Origin: an uncultured bacterium
GTDB lineage: Bacteria; Patescibacteriota; Patescibacteriia; Magasanikbacterales; UBA922
Assembly (NCBI GenBank): GCA_937861125.1
Contig: CALMAY010000038.1
Span: 190,921 to 254,920 of the forward strand
Reading direction: 5' to 3'
Length of the DNA: 64,000 bases
Under the pieces are notes generated by a model. That model saw only the letters and a program-made list of their open reading frames with translations, was not told the DNA's origin and did not search any database. This document shows, in pieces, positions 2,585 to 16,306 of the stretch. A program made the translations under genes and the position numbers. How positions within the stretch are numbered: position 1 is the stretch's first letter; each line of letters opens with the position of its first letter.

Positions 2585-2812
2585 TTATTCTGATTGTTGA
2601 TTTTTCTGACTATCGATATACACCCGGCGAGGGCAATAAGGGATCATGCAAATCAGTTCGTTGAGTGCAGATCCTACTAGTGTATTGAATGTGTTACATT
2701 GTTTGCATTTGATCTCTATTTCACTATCTATGAGCACCCCTTTACACAGTAGCTTTTTGCAGCTACGACAGCGGTATTCTTTATACCATTGTTTGGGTGT
2801 GAGTGGTTCCAC
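2585..2812 (-). CDS. small zinc-ribbon protein (CxxC...CxxC, Com-like), first gene of the nrd operon
   Basis: 75 aa with RCRSCKKLLCKG...EIKCKQCNTFN. Same strand as nrdD and 70 nt upstream of it. No other recognisable domain. Confidence 0.5.
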   Translation of the reverse strand: MEPLTPKQWYKEYRCRSCKKLLCKGVLIDSEIEIKCKQCNTFNTLVGSALNELICMIPYCPRRVYIDSQKNQQSE

Positions 2813-2816
2813 ATGA

Positions 2817-2865
2817 ATACTAGATATAGTAGAATAAAGTGATTTATTACTACAAGATATTGTGT
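2817..2865 (-). promoter_or_regulatory. possible tandem NrdR-box-like palindromes plus an extended -10
   Basis: The 16-mers atactagatatagtag (2817-2832) and ctacaagatattgtgt (2850-2865) match the remembered NrdR consensus acaCwAtATaTwGtgt at about 12 and 13 of 16 positions. Their spacing is 33 nt. A minus-strand TGtTATACT lies at about 2871-2879. The match is weak and AT-rich, so chance is plausible. Confidence 0.2.
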
Positions 2866-2993
2866 TTCATAGTATAACACATCTTTTTTATTTTAGCAGC
2901 AAGTCTGGGTGTGGATAACGTGATAATGCGAAGTGTATTTTATCCATGTTTGGTATATACTAGAAGTATCTTTTTATTCATAAGTATACACAT

Positions 2994-3338
2994 ATGATTG
3001 TAACTATACACACGACCAACATTGAGACTACACCAGCAATCAAAAAGTATGTGGAGTCAAAAGTGAAAAGTATTGTAAAATTTTATGATGCGGTGGTGAG
3101 TATGTCTATTGATATCGGGTTGACATCCAAACACCATAACAAAGGAAAGATTTTTTATGCCGAGGTGACGATTAAGTTACCAAAGAAAACAGTTCGTGTT
3201 ACCAAAGAAGCAGAAGACCTCTACAAAGCGATTGATAAAGTGCGTGACCATCTCAAACTTGAATTGAAAGAAACCAAAGAAAAGCGCGTGTCTCGTGACA
3301 AAAAAGTATTGAGAAAAATGAAAGAGTATCAAGAATAA
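2994..3338 (+). CDS. hpf: ribosome hibernation promoting factor / RaiA family (short form)
   Basis: 114 aa: MIVTIHTTNIETTPAIKKYVESKV...FYAEVTIKLPKKTVRVTKEAEDLYKAIDKVRDHLKLELKE. This is the typical HPF/YfiA pattern. Confidence 0.9.
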   Translation: MIVTIHTTNIETTPAIKKYVESKVKSIVKFYDAVVSMSIDIGLTSKHHNKGKIFYAEVTIKLPKKTVRVTKEAEDLYKAIDKVRDHLKLELKETKEKRVSRDKKVLRKMKEYQE

Positions 3339-3346
3339 TCACAAAA

Positions 3347-3377
3347 TACACCCTCCTCATTTTTTGAGAAGGGTGTA
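3347..3377. terminator. hairpin downstream of hpf, usable in both directions
   Basis: TACACCCTCCTC / GAGAAGGGTGTA pair at 11 of 12 positions around loop ATTTTTT. The mismatch is C-A on the plus strand and a G-U on the minus strand. The minus-strand reading is followed by TTTTGTG. Confidence 0.55.
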
Positions 3378-3395
3378 TTAATATATAATGGTGTC

Positions 3396-3740
3396 CGCCG
3401 GCCGAGGTGAGTCGGCCGGCGTGAGCACCTGCGTGTCAGCCCATCCAGGGCCAGAAAGCGCGTCGCCATCGCCCAGCTTGCGCGTCCCAGACTCGCATGA
3501 GATTCCCTGTGAAGGTCAACGTGCGACCGTACGGTGGATCGATCTGTGTGCTCTTGTCGATTCCCTGTCGAAGAAACACAGGTTTAGGACCTCGTGCAAG
3601 TCTGTGTGCTGTGGCGGCAGGAACCAGGATGGACGTACATGTGTTGGTACTTAAGGATTCCCCCTTGTCTGTGGCCCACCGAGATGGTGAGCAAACTGCG
3701 CAAAATATACATAGTTAAGCTCTTTTTGTCAAGCTTTTTT
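3396..3740 (+). ncRNA. unclassified structured RNA candidate (about 345 nt) with its own -10 box and terminator-like 3' hairpin
   Basis: TATAAT lies at 3384-3389. A 10-bp GC hairpin spans 3396-3421. Nested long-range helices are 3441-3445/3683-3687, 3448-3452/3673-3677, 3462-3468/3612-3618 and 3477-3484/3593-3600. Local hairpins lie at 3514-3528, 3533-3565 and 3653-3666. The 3' end has AAGCT/AGCTT plus a T-run at 3717-3740. Hand count gives about 57% G+C over 3421-3660. Strand is assigned from three G-U pairs. No family was recognised. Confidence 0.55.
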
Positions 3741-3777
3741 GAGTGGGTAACTCTGTATGGACAGAGGAGGGGAATAG

Positions 3778-3786
3778 TGGTATGAT
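3778..3786 (+). promoter_or_regulatory. extended -10 element (TGgTATGAT) for secA
   Basis: The sequence tggtatgat lies 28 nt upstream of the secA ATG and downstream of the RNA's terminator-like hairpin. Confidence 0.4.
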
Positions 3787-3813
3787 GCCCTCCGTATATT
3801 ACCTTTATTTGAT

Positions 3814-6693
3814 ATGAATATTCTCTCTGTTCTCTTTGGTGATCAAAACAAAAAGACACTCAAACGCTTCACTCCGCTTGTCCCAAAAATCCAGGCACTT
3901 GAACCGCAGATGCAGGCACTCTCAGATGAGTCACTCCAGACCAAAACAGCCGAATTCAAAGACCGTCTTGCAAACGGTGAAACACTCGATGATATTCTCG
4001 TTGAGGCATTTGCTGTTGTGCGTGAAGCATCTCGACGTGTGCTGAATATGCGTCATTTTGATGTGCAGATGATTGGTGGCGCTGCGATTCATCATGGGTT
4101 TGTCGCAGAGATGCGTACTGGTGAAGGAAAGACACTGGTCGCTACGTTACCGACATATCTCAATGCACTTGAGGGAAAAGGTGTCCATGTCGTGACGGTG
4201 AACGATTATCTCGCGAAACGTGATGCGGTCTGGATGGCGCCATTGTACAATTATCTTGGCATGAGTGTTGGTATCATTCAGAATCTGCGCGTGTCATATG
4301 TGTATGACAAGGATCAGGTATCAATGAATACTAATCAGGAAAGTAGTGAAGTGGTGGTAGAGGATCAGTTCCTTCGCACGTGTTCACGCAAAGAGGCGTA
4401 TGCTTGTGATATCACGTATGGTACCAACAATGAATTTGGGTTTGATTATCTGCGTGACAACATGGTGCAGGAGTTTGGTGAGATGGTGATGCGTCAGAAC
4501 TCTGCGATGCGATTTGCGATTATCGATGAGGCGGATTCTATTTTGATTGACGAAGCACGTACACCATTGATCATTTCAGCGCCAGCTGAGGAGGCGACAG
4601 ATCAATACTATCGTTTTGCCAAACTTGTGAAACAGTTGGCGGTCAATACTGATTATAATGTCGATGAAAAACTACGTGCTGTAACGCTGACAGCTGACGG
4701 TATTGCAAAGATGGAACAGTCACTGGGTATTGAAAACATTTATACCGAAAGTGGTATCGGCGTGGTTCATCATATTGAGCAAGCACTCAAGGCGGAGGTG
4801 CTGTTTCGTCGTGATCGTGATTATATTGTCGACGGTGAAGAAGTGGTCATTATTGATGAGTTCACTGGACGCAAAATGCCGGGTCGTCGCTATAGTGATG
4901 GACTTCATCAAGCGATTGAGGCCAAAGAGTTGGTTCCAATTAAACGTGAGAGTCGCACTCTCGCGACAATTACATTCCAGAATCTGTTCCGCATGTATGA
5001 CAAGATTGCTGGTATGACAGGAACAGCAGAGACAGAAAAAGAAGAGCTCTACAAAATTTACGCACTCGACACACTCGTAGTGCCGACCAATCGAGTGGAT
5101 AGTCGCACCGATCATCCAGATCGTATTTATAAAAATGAAAAAGGGAAAAAGAAAGCGATTGTTGAGAAAATCAAAGAATGTCAGGCAAAACAACAGCCAA
5201 TGCTCATTGGTACCGCGTCAGTTGAAAAAAATGAAGAACTCTCTGCATATCTCACACAGTGTGGGATTACTCACGAAGTGCTCAATGCCAAAAATCATGA
5301 ACGTGAAGCGGAGATCATCGCACAAGCTGGTCGTCCAGGTGCGATTACACTGGCGACCAATATGGCTGGTCGTGGTGTGGATATCAAACTAGGAGGAAAC
5401 CCAATTAGTGAGGAAGAAGCTGAAACTGTCCGCAAAGCGGGTGGACTCTTTGTGCTGGGTACTGAGCGTCATGAGGCACGTCGCATCGATAATCAGCTTC
5501 GTGGTCGTGCAGCGCGTCAGGGAGATCCTGGTGAGACACAATTTTTTGTCTCGACTGAGGATGATTTGATGCGTATTTTTGCAGGAGATCGCATGCGCAA
5601 TCTCATGGAGCGTCTCAATGTGCCAGAGGATATGCCAATCGAACAAGGGATGATCACAAAGATGATAGAGACTGCACAGAAAAAAGTAGAAGGTCATAAC
5701 TTTGATATTCGCAAACATTTGCTCGAATACGATGATGTGCTCAACAAGCAGCGTGTGGCAATGTATCGTCGACGCAAAGAAGTGCTGACGTTGTCTGGAA
5801 ATGCAGAATTAAAAATGCAGAATGTAGAATCGCCAGATAGTCTCTCACAATCTCAAATCTCAAATCTGAAATCTGAAATTATTACTGAATCAGGTGAAAT
5901 TTTAGAAGGGCAAGATGTTCAAACACACAAATCTTTGAAAGATATTATTCTGGAGATGTTTGAACAAGAGATCGAATACATTGTGTCATTTCATACCAAT
6001 CCAAACTCAACTACTCCTGAGGGTGGTAAATCTAATGAGTGGAACATGCAGGAGATTATTGAAACAGCGAAAACAATGTTGCCTATTGATGATGCAGTAT
6101 GTGAACAGATTCGTACTCTAGGTATTCATGAGCGAAACAAGATGGATGATATAGAAGCACGAGAAAGTATTGTTTCATTGCTTATTGATGCGGTGCGTGC
6201 ACAATACGCATTGCTCGAAGAAAATATTGAGGCAGCGAGTCGAGCATTTGGTGCCGTGGGTGAGTCTGACACACAAACACGTGCGATGACTGCGATTGAA
6301 AAAGGGATGTTGCTGCGTGCTATTGATTCACAATGGGTCAATCATTTAATCAACATTGATCACTTGCGCAAAAGTATTGGTTTGCAGGGCTATGCACAAC
6401 GTGATCCACTGATTGAATACAAACGAGAAACATATCATCTTTTCCATACACTCGAAGCAAACATCCAAAAAGAAGTAGTGTATGCGTTCTTTAAAATTTC
6501 TGCTGGTCTCAAAATCGCACCAACTATCATGAGTACCGCTGGTGCAATGCTTTCTGGTGCTCAAAAGACGAGTGAAGAAATACAATCTGAAGCCTTGGGT
6601 GAACAAGAATCACAGGGTGTTGGAAAAATTGGACGCAACGATGTGTGTCCGTGTGGAAGTGGAAAGAAGTATAAGAAATGCCATGGAAAATAA
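3814..6693 (+). CDS. secA: preprotein translocase ATPase SecA
   Basis: 959 aa with MRTGEGKTLVATLP, IIDEADSILIDEARTPLIIS and TNMAGRGVDIKLGG, plus the C-terminal Zn finger CPCGSGKKYKKCHG. Confidence 0.98.
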   Translation: MNILSVLFGDQNKKTLKRFTPLVPKIQALEPQMQALSDESLQTKTAEFKDRLANGETLDDILVEAFAVVREASRRVLNMRHFDVQMIGGAAIHHGFVAEMRTGEGKTLVATLPTYLNALEGKGVHVVTVNDYLAKRDAVWMAPLYNYLGMSVGIIQNLRVSYVYDKDQVSMNTNQESSEVVVEDQFLRTCSRKEAYACDITYGTNNEFGFDYLRDNMVQEFGEMVMRQNSAMRFAIIDEADSILIDEARTPLIISAPAEEATDQYYRFAKLVKQLAVNTDYNVDEKLRAVTLTADGIAKMEQSLGIENIYTESGIGVVHHIEQALKAEVLFRRDRDYIVDGEEVVIIDEFTGRKMPGRRYSDGLHQAIEAKELVPIKRESRTLATITFQNLFRMYDKIAGMTGTAETEKEELYKIYALDTLVVPTNRVDSRTDHPDRIYKNEKGKKKAIVEKIKECQAKQQPMLIGTASVEKNEELSAYLTQCGITHEVLNAKNHEREAEIIAQAGRPGAITLATNMAGRGVDIKLGGNPISEEEAETVRKAGGLFVLGTERHEARRIDNQLRGRAARQGDPGETQFFVSTEDDLMRIFAGDRMRNLMERLNVPEDMPIEQGMITKMIETAQKKVEGHNFDIRKHLLEYDDVLNKQRVAMYRRRKEVLTLSGNAELKMQNVESPDSLSQSQISNLKSEIITESGEILEGQDVQTHKSLKDIILEMFEQEIEYIVSFHTNPNSTTPEGGKSNEWNMQEIIETAKTMLPIDDAVCEQIRTLGIHERNKMDDIEARESIVSLLIDAVRAQYALLEENIEAASRAFGAVGESDTQTRAMTAIEKGMLLRAIDSQWVNHLINIDHLRKSIGLQGYAQRDPLIEYKRETYHLFHTLEANIQKEVVYAFFKISAGLKIAPTIMSTAGAMLSGAQKTSEEIQSEALGEQESQGVGKIGRNDVCPCGSGKKYKKCHGK
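5849..5876 (+). repeat. 7-bp tandem repeat (AATCTCA x2, AATCTGA x2) inside secA
   Basis: The direct read is aatctca aatctca aatctga aatctga. It encodes part of the segment SQISNLKSEI, which appears to be lineage-specific. Confidence 0.9.
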
Positions 6694-16235: not shown

Positions 16236-16306
16236 CTCGGGGACCTGGATTCGAACCAAGATAAACAGGTCCAGAACCTGTTGTCCTACCATTAGACGAT
16301 CCCCGA
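16236..16306 (-). tRNA. tRNA-Gln (anticodon CUG)
   Basis: Hand-folded cloverleaf. Acceptor UCGGGGA/UCCCCGA. D-stem GUCU/GGAC. Anticodon stem ACAGG/CCUGU with loop UUCUGGA. T-arm CUUGG-UUCGAAU-CCAGG. Discriminator G. CCA is not encoded. Confidence 0.9.

Follow-up and report, generated by a model that had tools for sequence, protein, structure and literature searches.

The 64,000-nt stretch of contig CALMAY010000038.1 analysed here, referred to as the window, carries a spacer of 475 nt between hpf (2994-3338, plus strand) and secA (3814-6693, plus strand). This spacer holds a GC-rich island, which, judging from its comparison with related genomes, is probably an unannotated orphan gene for a small protein with a strongly structured mRNA, located on the minus strand, and not a raiA-like RNA. 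The GC content reaches 0.56-0.70 per 100 nt over 3350-3700 compared with 0.31 for 3250-3399, values that bear out the GC-rich island of a preliminary description of this DNA, in which a non-coding RNA of the plus strand had been proposed. Within the 64 kb (mean GC content 0.41), only the hpf-secA island exceeds 58% GC, and it is present in a single copy.

Searches with SecA place the organism among Magasanikbacteria-like Patescibacteria, and six relatives with SecA proteins 79-95% identical to that of the window, namely L086, L087, L088, L089, L093, and L094, were available for comparison; together with the window they form the seven strains mentioned below. Their secA genes show a synonymous divergence (dS) of 0.5-1.1 within the group and of more than 1.9 to L089, with a nonsynonymous divergence (dN) of 0.02-0.05 within the group, so that they represent different species. 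Unconstrained DNA is scrambled at such dS, and non-genic blocks that can still be aligned are therefore under selection. The centre of the island could not be aligned at the DNA level, neither by alignment nor by pairwise BLAST, and three conserved blocks were found, the first being a minus-strand promoter, the second the leader next to it, and the third the promoter of secA together with its 5' region.

The minus-strand promoter (TTGACA-17-TATATT) matches the consensus at 11 of 12 positions and is the best site within 2800-4000 in a consensus scan, its spacer being fixed at 17 nt in all seven strains, and the same scan found no plus-strand promoter inside the island. Transcription would start at about A3697 of the minus strand. 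The 5' hairpin of the leader shows canonical pairs in 41 of 42 cells across the strains, with compensatory, both-side changes at four of its seven pairs, and is likely a 5' stabiliser of the transcript. At the other end of the unit, a strong GC hairpin is found about 5-30 nt past the stop codon of the small open reading frame (ORF) in every strain, with energies of -21 to -33 kcal/mol and differing sequences. In the window its core is a perfect 10-bp hairpin (3396-3405/3412-3421), exactly as had been described for the putative 5' end of the plus-strand RNA, and L088 shares the hairpin block 3389-3450 at 95% identity despite a secA dS of 1.1. The intrinsic terminator behind it faces hpf and is probably shared with this gene; equivalent terminators follow the 3' hairpin in L086, L087, L088, L089, and L094, the L093 sequence ending before that point.

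These promoter and terminator signals would define a single-gene unit on the minus strand, divergent from secA, with a near-consensus sigma-70-type promoter (3732-3704) and a transcript of about 360 nt, running from about 3697 to about 3338. Along this transcript, the 7-bp 5' hairpin would be followed by the Shine-Dalgarno element, the small ORF (3654-3436), the stable GC hairpin, and the intrinsic terminator. The earlier view is supported in that the island forms an orphan unit, transcribed independently over about 350 nt between a promoter and a terminator of its own, and its RNA is unusually GC-rich and folded, as had been supposed; its strand has to be reversed, since the conserved 11/12 promoter and the U-tract terminator lie on the minus strand.

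The small ORF is preceded by a Shine-Dalgarno element that reads AAGGAGG in L087, L093, and L089, AAGGGGG in the window and L088, and GGAG in L086. At a distance of 4-7 nt past this element lies a start codon, which is ATG in L087, L093, L094, and L089, TTG in L088, and GTG in L086; the whole arrangement is AAGGAGG-N4-ATG in L087 and L093 and AAGGAGGG-N6-ATG in L089. In all seven strains, the frame stays open between the conserved start position and a stop located just ahead of the 3' hairpin, with lengths of 43-85 codons. The chance of such an open frame amounts to 0.07-0.16 per strain and to about 0.005-0.02 for the strains combined. In every strain that could be checked, the ORF is followed by its own terminator, and the next gene is either convergent (hpf) or has its own promoter, as does the gene for a 494-aa protein in L088 and L094.

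Conservation of the ORF is specific to its frame. The ORF frames of the window and L088 align over their full length, sharing 29 of 69 residues (z = 13 relative to shuffles) and differing at many synonymous sites. Their N-terminal halves keep the frame as well, and the 11 residues identical there show seven synonymous differences. In a local six-frame comparison, the BLOSUM score of the ORF frame exceeded that of the best other frame for window-L088 (79 vs. 47), L087-L093 (190 vs. 147), L087-L094 (93 vs. 48), and L087-L089 (45 vs. 21), the z values of the ORF-frame scores being 6-33 against shuffles. Because stop codons penalise the other frames in this local test, it was repeated, as a control for the bias, with the 3' halves in a nucleotide alignment that was kept fixed and without gaps. 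There, the ORF frame gave the highest BLOSUM sum in all three pairs, and its ratios of nonsynonymous to synonymous differences (pN/pS) were 0.47, 0.78, and 0.89 compared with 0.53-1.28 in the other frames, which is the lowest value in two of the three pairs and the second lowest in L093-L094 (0.89 vs. 0.85 in an antisense frame). Mismatches summed by codon position were 124/119/168. Protein constraint outweighs RNA constraint: L089 retains the C-terminal motif DPxxGxVxRRxW...G-stop of the type-B peptides described below though its RNA hairpin register differs, and in L093 a synonymous CGG-to-AGG change disrupts a stem pair. Combined, these lines provide good, though not conclusive, evidence for translation. 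The preliminary description had seen no credible protein here, a statement at odds with the open minus-strand frame 3654..3436 and its protein-level conservation with L088; likewise, the Shine-Dalgarno element with start codon, the conserved stop, and the frame-specific conservation speak against its non-coding call. The features of the locus are compiled in Table 1.

Table 1. Coordinates of the probable small-gene unit and of the secA promoter in the window.
Feature	Position	Strand	Basis or remark
-35 hexamer TTGACA	3727..3732	-	consensus scan; invariant in 7/7 strains
-10 hexamer TATATT	3704..3709	-	TATATT in 6 strains, TATAAA in L089
5' hairpin GCUCACC-AUCUC-GGUGGGC, 7 bp	3674..3692	-	6/7 strains, missing only in L089
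Shine-Dalgarno-like element AAGGGGGA	3659..3666	-	same position purine-rich in relatives
Small ORF, 72 codons + TGA	3436..3654	-	in-frame alignment to the L088 ORF
GC-rich 3' hairpin directly after the stop codon	3390..3429	-	10-bp core 3396-3421, extended 16 bp, -29 kcal/mol
Intrinsic terminator, 15-bp stem 3345-3379 + U-rich tail	3335..3379	-	scan: minus strand only
secA promoter TGGACA-17-TATGAT, extended -10 TG	3758..3786	+	consensus scan; divergent from the small gene

The encoded peptides fall into at least three types, which on their sequences look unrelated and all lie in one expression slot: type A in the window and L088, type B in L087, L093, L094, and L089, and type C in L086. Type A is basic with an isoelectric point of 10-11.5, type B is acidic with one of 4-6, and type C is rich in cysteine and zinc-ribbon-like. 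All seven peptides have a maximum of -0.2 to 1.5 in the Kyte-Doolittle 15-residue window and no membrane segment. The product would be a soluble small protein of 43-85 aa, probably rich in beta structure, without a membrane segment and seemingly fast-evolving (pN/pS of about 0.5-0.9). As for its role, our guess is an accessory, lineage-specific small binding protein and not a core factor.

An exhaustive phmmer search with the window peptide gave 63 matches, all of them to proteins matched over several stretches, and four that were run through Pfam comprised three WD40 proteins and one other tandem repeat. The stretch "STQIDPPYGRTLTFTGNLMRVWDAQAGR" of the window peptide resembles a single WD40 blade (residues 34-62, "RVWDAQAGR"); the Pfam WD40 model did not match the window peptide in scans with a maximum E of 10 and of 1, and the L088 peptide matched no WD40 proteins. 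An origin as a fragment of an Rhs/YD-repeat or WD40 protein was rejected, the similarity being weak, amplified by repeats, and not common to L088. Searching the island by nhmmer against 80 secA loci from GTDB species, whose SecA is at most 71% identical and whose spacers have other contents, gave no match. In scans of viral contigs, neither the 3' hairpin nor the 3' end of type B found a match, and a metagenome scan with the conserved promoter pattern returned only three unrelated consensus promoters. Beside such a consensus promoter, the unrelated metagenome contig L090, obtained with this pattern, carries at 145-400 a GC-rich, structured-looking stretch (GGGGAGAGCCGCACCC...), which may be a candidate housekeeping RNA.

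The composition of the island differs from that of its neighbours in codon choice as well. The GC content at third codon positions (GC3) is 0.55-0.68 in the small ORFs compared with 0.27-0.39 in nrdD, hpf, secA, and secD of the window, and secA of the relatives shows a GC3 of 0.23-0.43. The GC-rich island would result from codon choice together with the hairpins in and around the ORF. When folded and compared with shuffles, 3390-3745 of the window gave z values of -2.7 on the plus strand and -3.7 on the minus strand, and the ORF part alone -2.3 and -1.7, respectively; as both strands fold somewhat better than shuffles, stability does not indicate the strand. Against dinucleotide shuffles, the ORF regions reached z values of -8.4 in L087, -4.5 in L093, -3.5 in L094, -3.3 in L089, -2.8 in L086, -2.0 in L088, and -1.6 in the window. 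Consensus hairpins of three type-B sequences had 84.5% of their cells paired compared with 73% in shuffles, and both-side changes occurred at 13 pairs compared with 5.5+-1.7 in shuffles and 2-6 in slid controls; the RNAalifold covariation term was about 0, however, and the alignment tested had also served to derive the structure. The mRNA fold itself appears to be under selection, and a strong fold selected in this way may serve transcript stability, translation control, or both, or a separate RNA function. Such a fold would explain the GC-rich island, and to this extent the intuition behind the preliminary description appears to hold, with the fold belonging to an mRNA.

Several observations weigh against a translated gene. 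The window has TTA (3654-3652), no canonical start, at the conserved start position, and gene callers called none of these small ORFs in the window or the relatives. No homologues of the peptides were detected among 5.8 billion clustered proteins searched with peptide alignments, nor in Pfam, PHROGs, NCBIfam, PADLOC, or the PDB, nor by BLAST in phages or plasmids, and homology between types A and B was not supported (hhalign probability 0.8%). An AlphaFold single-sequence model had a mean predicted local distance difference test (pLDDT) score of 50, with four beta strands in residues 35-67, and was too poor for a fold search. The pN/pS of about 0.5-0.9 is high, the excess of third-position changes is modest, the comparative set holds seven sequences only, and part of the amino-acid conservation could reflect RNA constraint from the conserved hairpins inside the ORF. 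Much of this would fit a structured, non-coding small RNA made from the same minus-strand promoter and terminator, with the ORF as a by-product of GC-rich, stop-poor sequence. Such an RNA would account for ORF regions far stabler than shuffles (z down to -8.4 in L087), for the 13 both-side pair changes in type B against 5.5+-1.7 in shuffles, for the lack of homologues in the databases searched, for the TTA of the window and for a GC3 far above that of the host, and an open frame this long has a chance of 7-16% per sequence. We nevertheless consider it unlikely, as AAGGAGG stands 4-6 nt ahead of an ATG in three relatives, the stop always falls just before the 3' hairpin, and the ORF frame had the top BLOSUM score in every comparison, its pN/pS being the lowest for two of the three pairs. 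The peptide motif of L089 is kept despite a different hairpin register, the RNAalifold covariation term is about 0, and types A, B, and C differ wholly in sequence and structure, which is unexpected for one functional fold.

The TTA codon would also be explained if the unit of the window were a dying remnant, namely a captured or decaying GC-rich gene fragment corresponding to one WD40-like blade, which has lost its start and yields no product. The likeness of residues 34-62 to such a blade, the phmmer matches, all to repeat proteins and in three of four Pfam-checked cases to WD40 proteins, and a location that looks like a rearrangement hot spot, with the neighbouring 494-aa gene deleted and an hpf only 71-75% identical to that of relatives, fit this scenario. 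It is hard to reconcile with 72 codons that are still open and in frame with L088 throughout, including the seven synonymous differences of the N-terminal half, and with a promoter, 5' hairpin, Shine-Dalgarno element, 3' hairpin, and terminator that are all intact; moreover, the L088 peptide is without WD40 matches and the Pfam WD40 model is silent, so that the WD40 likeness is probably chance amplified by repeats. In addition, a GTG that lies in frame at 3579 and has GAGG 10 nt ahead of it is available and would give a product of 47 aa. A remnant is clearly improbable on these grounds, and the window copy may be translated from GTG 3579 or from a non-canonical start, or may have been silenced only recently. 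Least probable, and very unlikely, is the plus-strand RNA of about 345 nt that the preliminary description had drawn from a TATAAT at 3384 to a weak hairpin plus T6 at 3717-3740, with long-range helices and possibly a distant kinship to raiA. Its helices do pair perfectly in the window (5/5, 5/5, 7/7, and 8/8), G-U pairs in them favour the plus strand, and the fold is stabler than shuffles (z = -2.7; core -2.3). In the relatives, however, these long-range helices keep 2-5 of 5-8 pairs, which is the level of chance. The TATAAT at 3384-3389 is present, yet as a promoter it lacks a -35 element and is absent from relatives (L086, L087, and L088), and the supposed terminator proved to be the conserved minus-strand -35 region (TTGACA 3732-3727) with its upstream A-tract, the hairpin and T6 being lost in L086. 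In line with the diagnostic motifs missed in the preliminary description, the Rfam 15 covariance models gave no match to RNase P, tmRNA, the signal recognition particle RNA, or 6S, and they gave none to the large orphan classes. At the gathering score, the 64 kb yielded only a tRNA at 16236-16306; with the limit relaxed to E<=10, cmscan gave eight weak, chance-level matches for the two strands of 3300-3850, none of them to raiA or a housekeeping RNA. The regions of the six relatives gave no match at either limit. The raiA proposal had to be given up for this reason and because neither the strand nor the place of the unit, downstream of hpf, is the right one, raiA RNAs being found upstream of raiA (PMC10861870). 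The small-protein gene on the minus strand remains the probable explanation.

SecM, MifM, and VemP are regulatory nascent peptides encoded next to sec genes. The small gene shares with them a small ORF beside a Sec-pathway gene and an aromatic, Arg-rich C-terminus (RRWWWGCG, RRAFWPWMG); in contrast to them, it lies on the opposite strand, is transcribed away from secA, and encodes no signal or membrane segment. Being transcribed away from secA and having its own terminator, it is not a SecM-like cis regulator of secA. A Trp attenuator or leader peptide, with the WWW codons before the hairpins, was rejected as well, since there is nothing downstream to regulate in the window, L086, and L087, and since a separate promoter serves the 494-aa gene of L088 and L094. 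Type I toxin mRNAs (hok, aapA1, bsrG), RNAIII/hld, and SgrS/SgrT are dual-function or highly structured small-protein mRNAs. They resemble the unit described here in their short, folded transcript of 200-400 nt with a strong promoter of its own and a peptide of less than 90 aa. Unlike type I toxin-antitoxin systems, our unit encodes no hydrophobic, toxin-like peptide (maximum of the Kyte-Doolittle 15-residue window below 1.6) and has no conserved antisense promoter, the sole plus-strand candidate, TATAAT 3384, not being conserved; its hairpins, in contrast to those of the mRNAs just named, are situated inside the ORF and not beside it.

Small open reading frames (sORFs) are a category used in searches of GC-rich intergenic regions, where they are recognised by start and stop codons that are conserved, and by not being positioned to regulate the main ORF (PMC11109978). 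The small gene agrees with them in its long GC-rich intergenic region within an AT-rich genome, in having been missed by gene callers, in a conserved stop position and coding-type conservation, with TTA at the start position in the window, and in not being placed to regulate a downstream main ORF. It differs in that no homologues were found, in an mRNA far more structured than usual, and in at least three apparently unrelated ORF types in one slot of promoter, leader, and terminator. The raiA-motif RNA (RF03072) of Bacillota and Actinomycetota has a length of about 200 nt, helices P1-P6, two pseudoknots, and 51 highly conserved nucleotides, and is located upstream of raiA/hpf in 66% and downstream of comFC in 74% of cases (PMC10861870). 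The island of our Patescibacteria shares with it the character of a GC-rich orphan element beside a gene of the hpf/raiA family (PMC10861870, PMC5737381). It is found downstream of hpf, with the conserved unit on the opposite strand and without P1-P6, the pseudoknots, or the 51 conserved nucleotides; in L088, L094, and L089, other genes part the unit from hpf, and it stays beside secA.

The promoters of the small gene and of secA stand back to back, their -35 hexamers 25 nt apart. That secA has its own promoter with an extended -10 had already been recognised and was confirmed here (Table 1). The promoter with its short leader (3751-3827) is 96% identical to L086, and L087 shows 94% identity over the wider stretch 3702-3827. 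With a dS of about 0.8, the synonymous sites of secA are nevertheless close to saturation. The promoter stretch also contains an inverted repeat, GGAGGGG (3766-3772)/CCCTCC (3788-3793), and the ATG of secA at 3814 has no obvious Shine-Dalgarno site ahead.

Further repeats occur within the island. The direct repeat GTGAGCA..CTGCG that had been noted on both flanks is present at 3421-3433 as described, and its second copy lies at 3687-3700, one base away from the position given before. On the minus strand (CGCAG..UGCUCAC), the copy at 3687-3700 falls at the probable 5' end of the transcript and that at 3421-3433 just past the stop; as a functional element the repeat was rejected, since it is not conserved in L088 or L086, and it is treated as chance. 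Two exact 10-nt direct repeats, each with copies 58 nt apart (3501-3510/3559-3568 and 3543-3552/3601-3610), read ACAGGGAAUC and AGCACACAGA on the minus strand, and a third, similar motif, ACAAGGGGGAAUCC, is found at the Shine-Dalgarno site. Their copies lie in different reading frames and are absent from L088. They could be internal Shine-Dalgarno-like motifs, GGA-type protein-binding motifs, or the product of chance. The 58-nt spacing prompted us to consider a mini-CRISPR, which was rejected, as only half-repeats match, the repeats are specific to the window, and their copies are in different frames. Public gene calls in the island are plus-strand ORFs of 43-73 aa, namely L001 3504-3725 (corresponding to 3497-3718 of the window) and L087 3440-3571 and 3694-3888. 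Lacking conservation between strains, they appear to be spurious and to mask the minus-strand gene.

The small-gene unit always adjoins secA, whatever lies on its other side. There, hpf is its immediate neighbour in the window, L086, and L087; in L089 this place is taken by five unrelated genes, and in L088, L094, and L002-L005 by the gene for a secreted protein (494 aa). The latter gene encodes 494-499 aa with a signal peptide and no Pfam domain and is located at 815-2299 in L088, at 1963-3459 in L094, and downstream of hpf in L002-L005; some of the contigs with this gene carry the exact hpf protein of the window. By tblastn, no trace of it was found within the 64-kb window, so that the window differs from its sister strains by an indel, about 1.9 kb in size, which falls on the stop codon of hpf. 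The hpf of the window shows 71-75% protein identity to relatives whose SecA is 92-95% identical; among L086, L088, and L094, hpf is 94-97% identical, L087 being more divergent with 79-83%. The divergence of the window hpf points to replacement by recombination at this locus. The distribution of the ORF types also departs from the SecA tree, since the window and L088, which share type A, are not sisters, and type B includes the outgroup L089; together with the divergent hpf of the window, this would suggest local recombination. In the hpf-secA spacers of more distant relatives, L008 (2066-2501) and L010 (747-1448) carry other minus-strand small genes with a TTGACA-type promoter and a Shine-Dalgarno element, which encode an AT-rich membrane protein of 68 aa in L008 and a GC-rich membrane protein of 136 aa, in a 72% GC island, in L010. 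Lineage-specific small genes seem to use the hpf-secA spacer as a general slot. A bolder version, which we regard as rather unlikely, would have a conserved expression slot of a fixed, strong promoter, 5' and 3' hairpins, Shine-Dalgarno element, and terminator, with unrelated, GC-rich and hairpin-laden ORFs swapped into and out of it by recombination, the transcripts being dual-function, that is, a structured RNA and a hypervariable small protein at once. If true, such a slot could serve episymbiotic bacteria as an accessory system that diversifies.

For the annotation of these genomes, a false lead is removed, the island being neither a new large RNA class nor a relative of raiA, and an orphan small-protein gene is probably added, which automated gene calling overlooks in all of the relatives, at times with spurious wrong-strand ORFs in its place. 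Within an AT-rich genome, a GC-rich island between genes may turn out to be the structured mRNA of a small protein, which is useful to bear in mind in non-coding RNA screens of such regions. If true, the exchange of ORF types in one slot, or the selection of an mRNA fold, would inform how accessory small proteins diversify in the reduced genomes of episymbionts.

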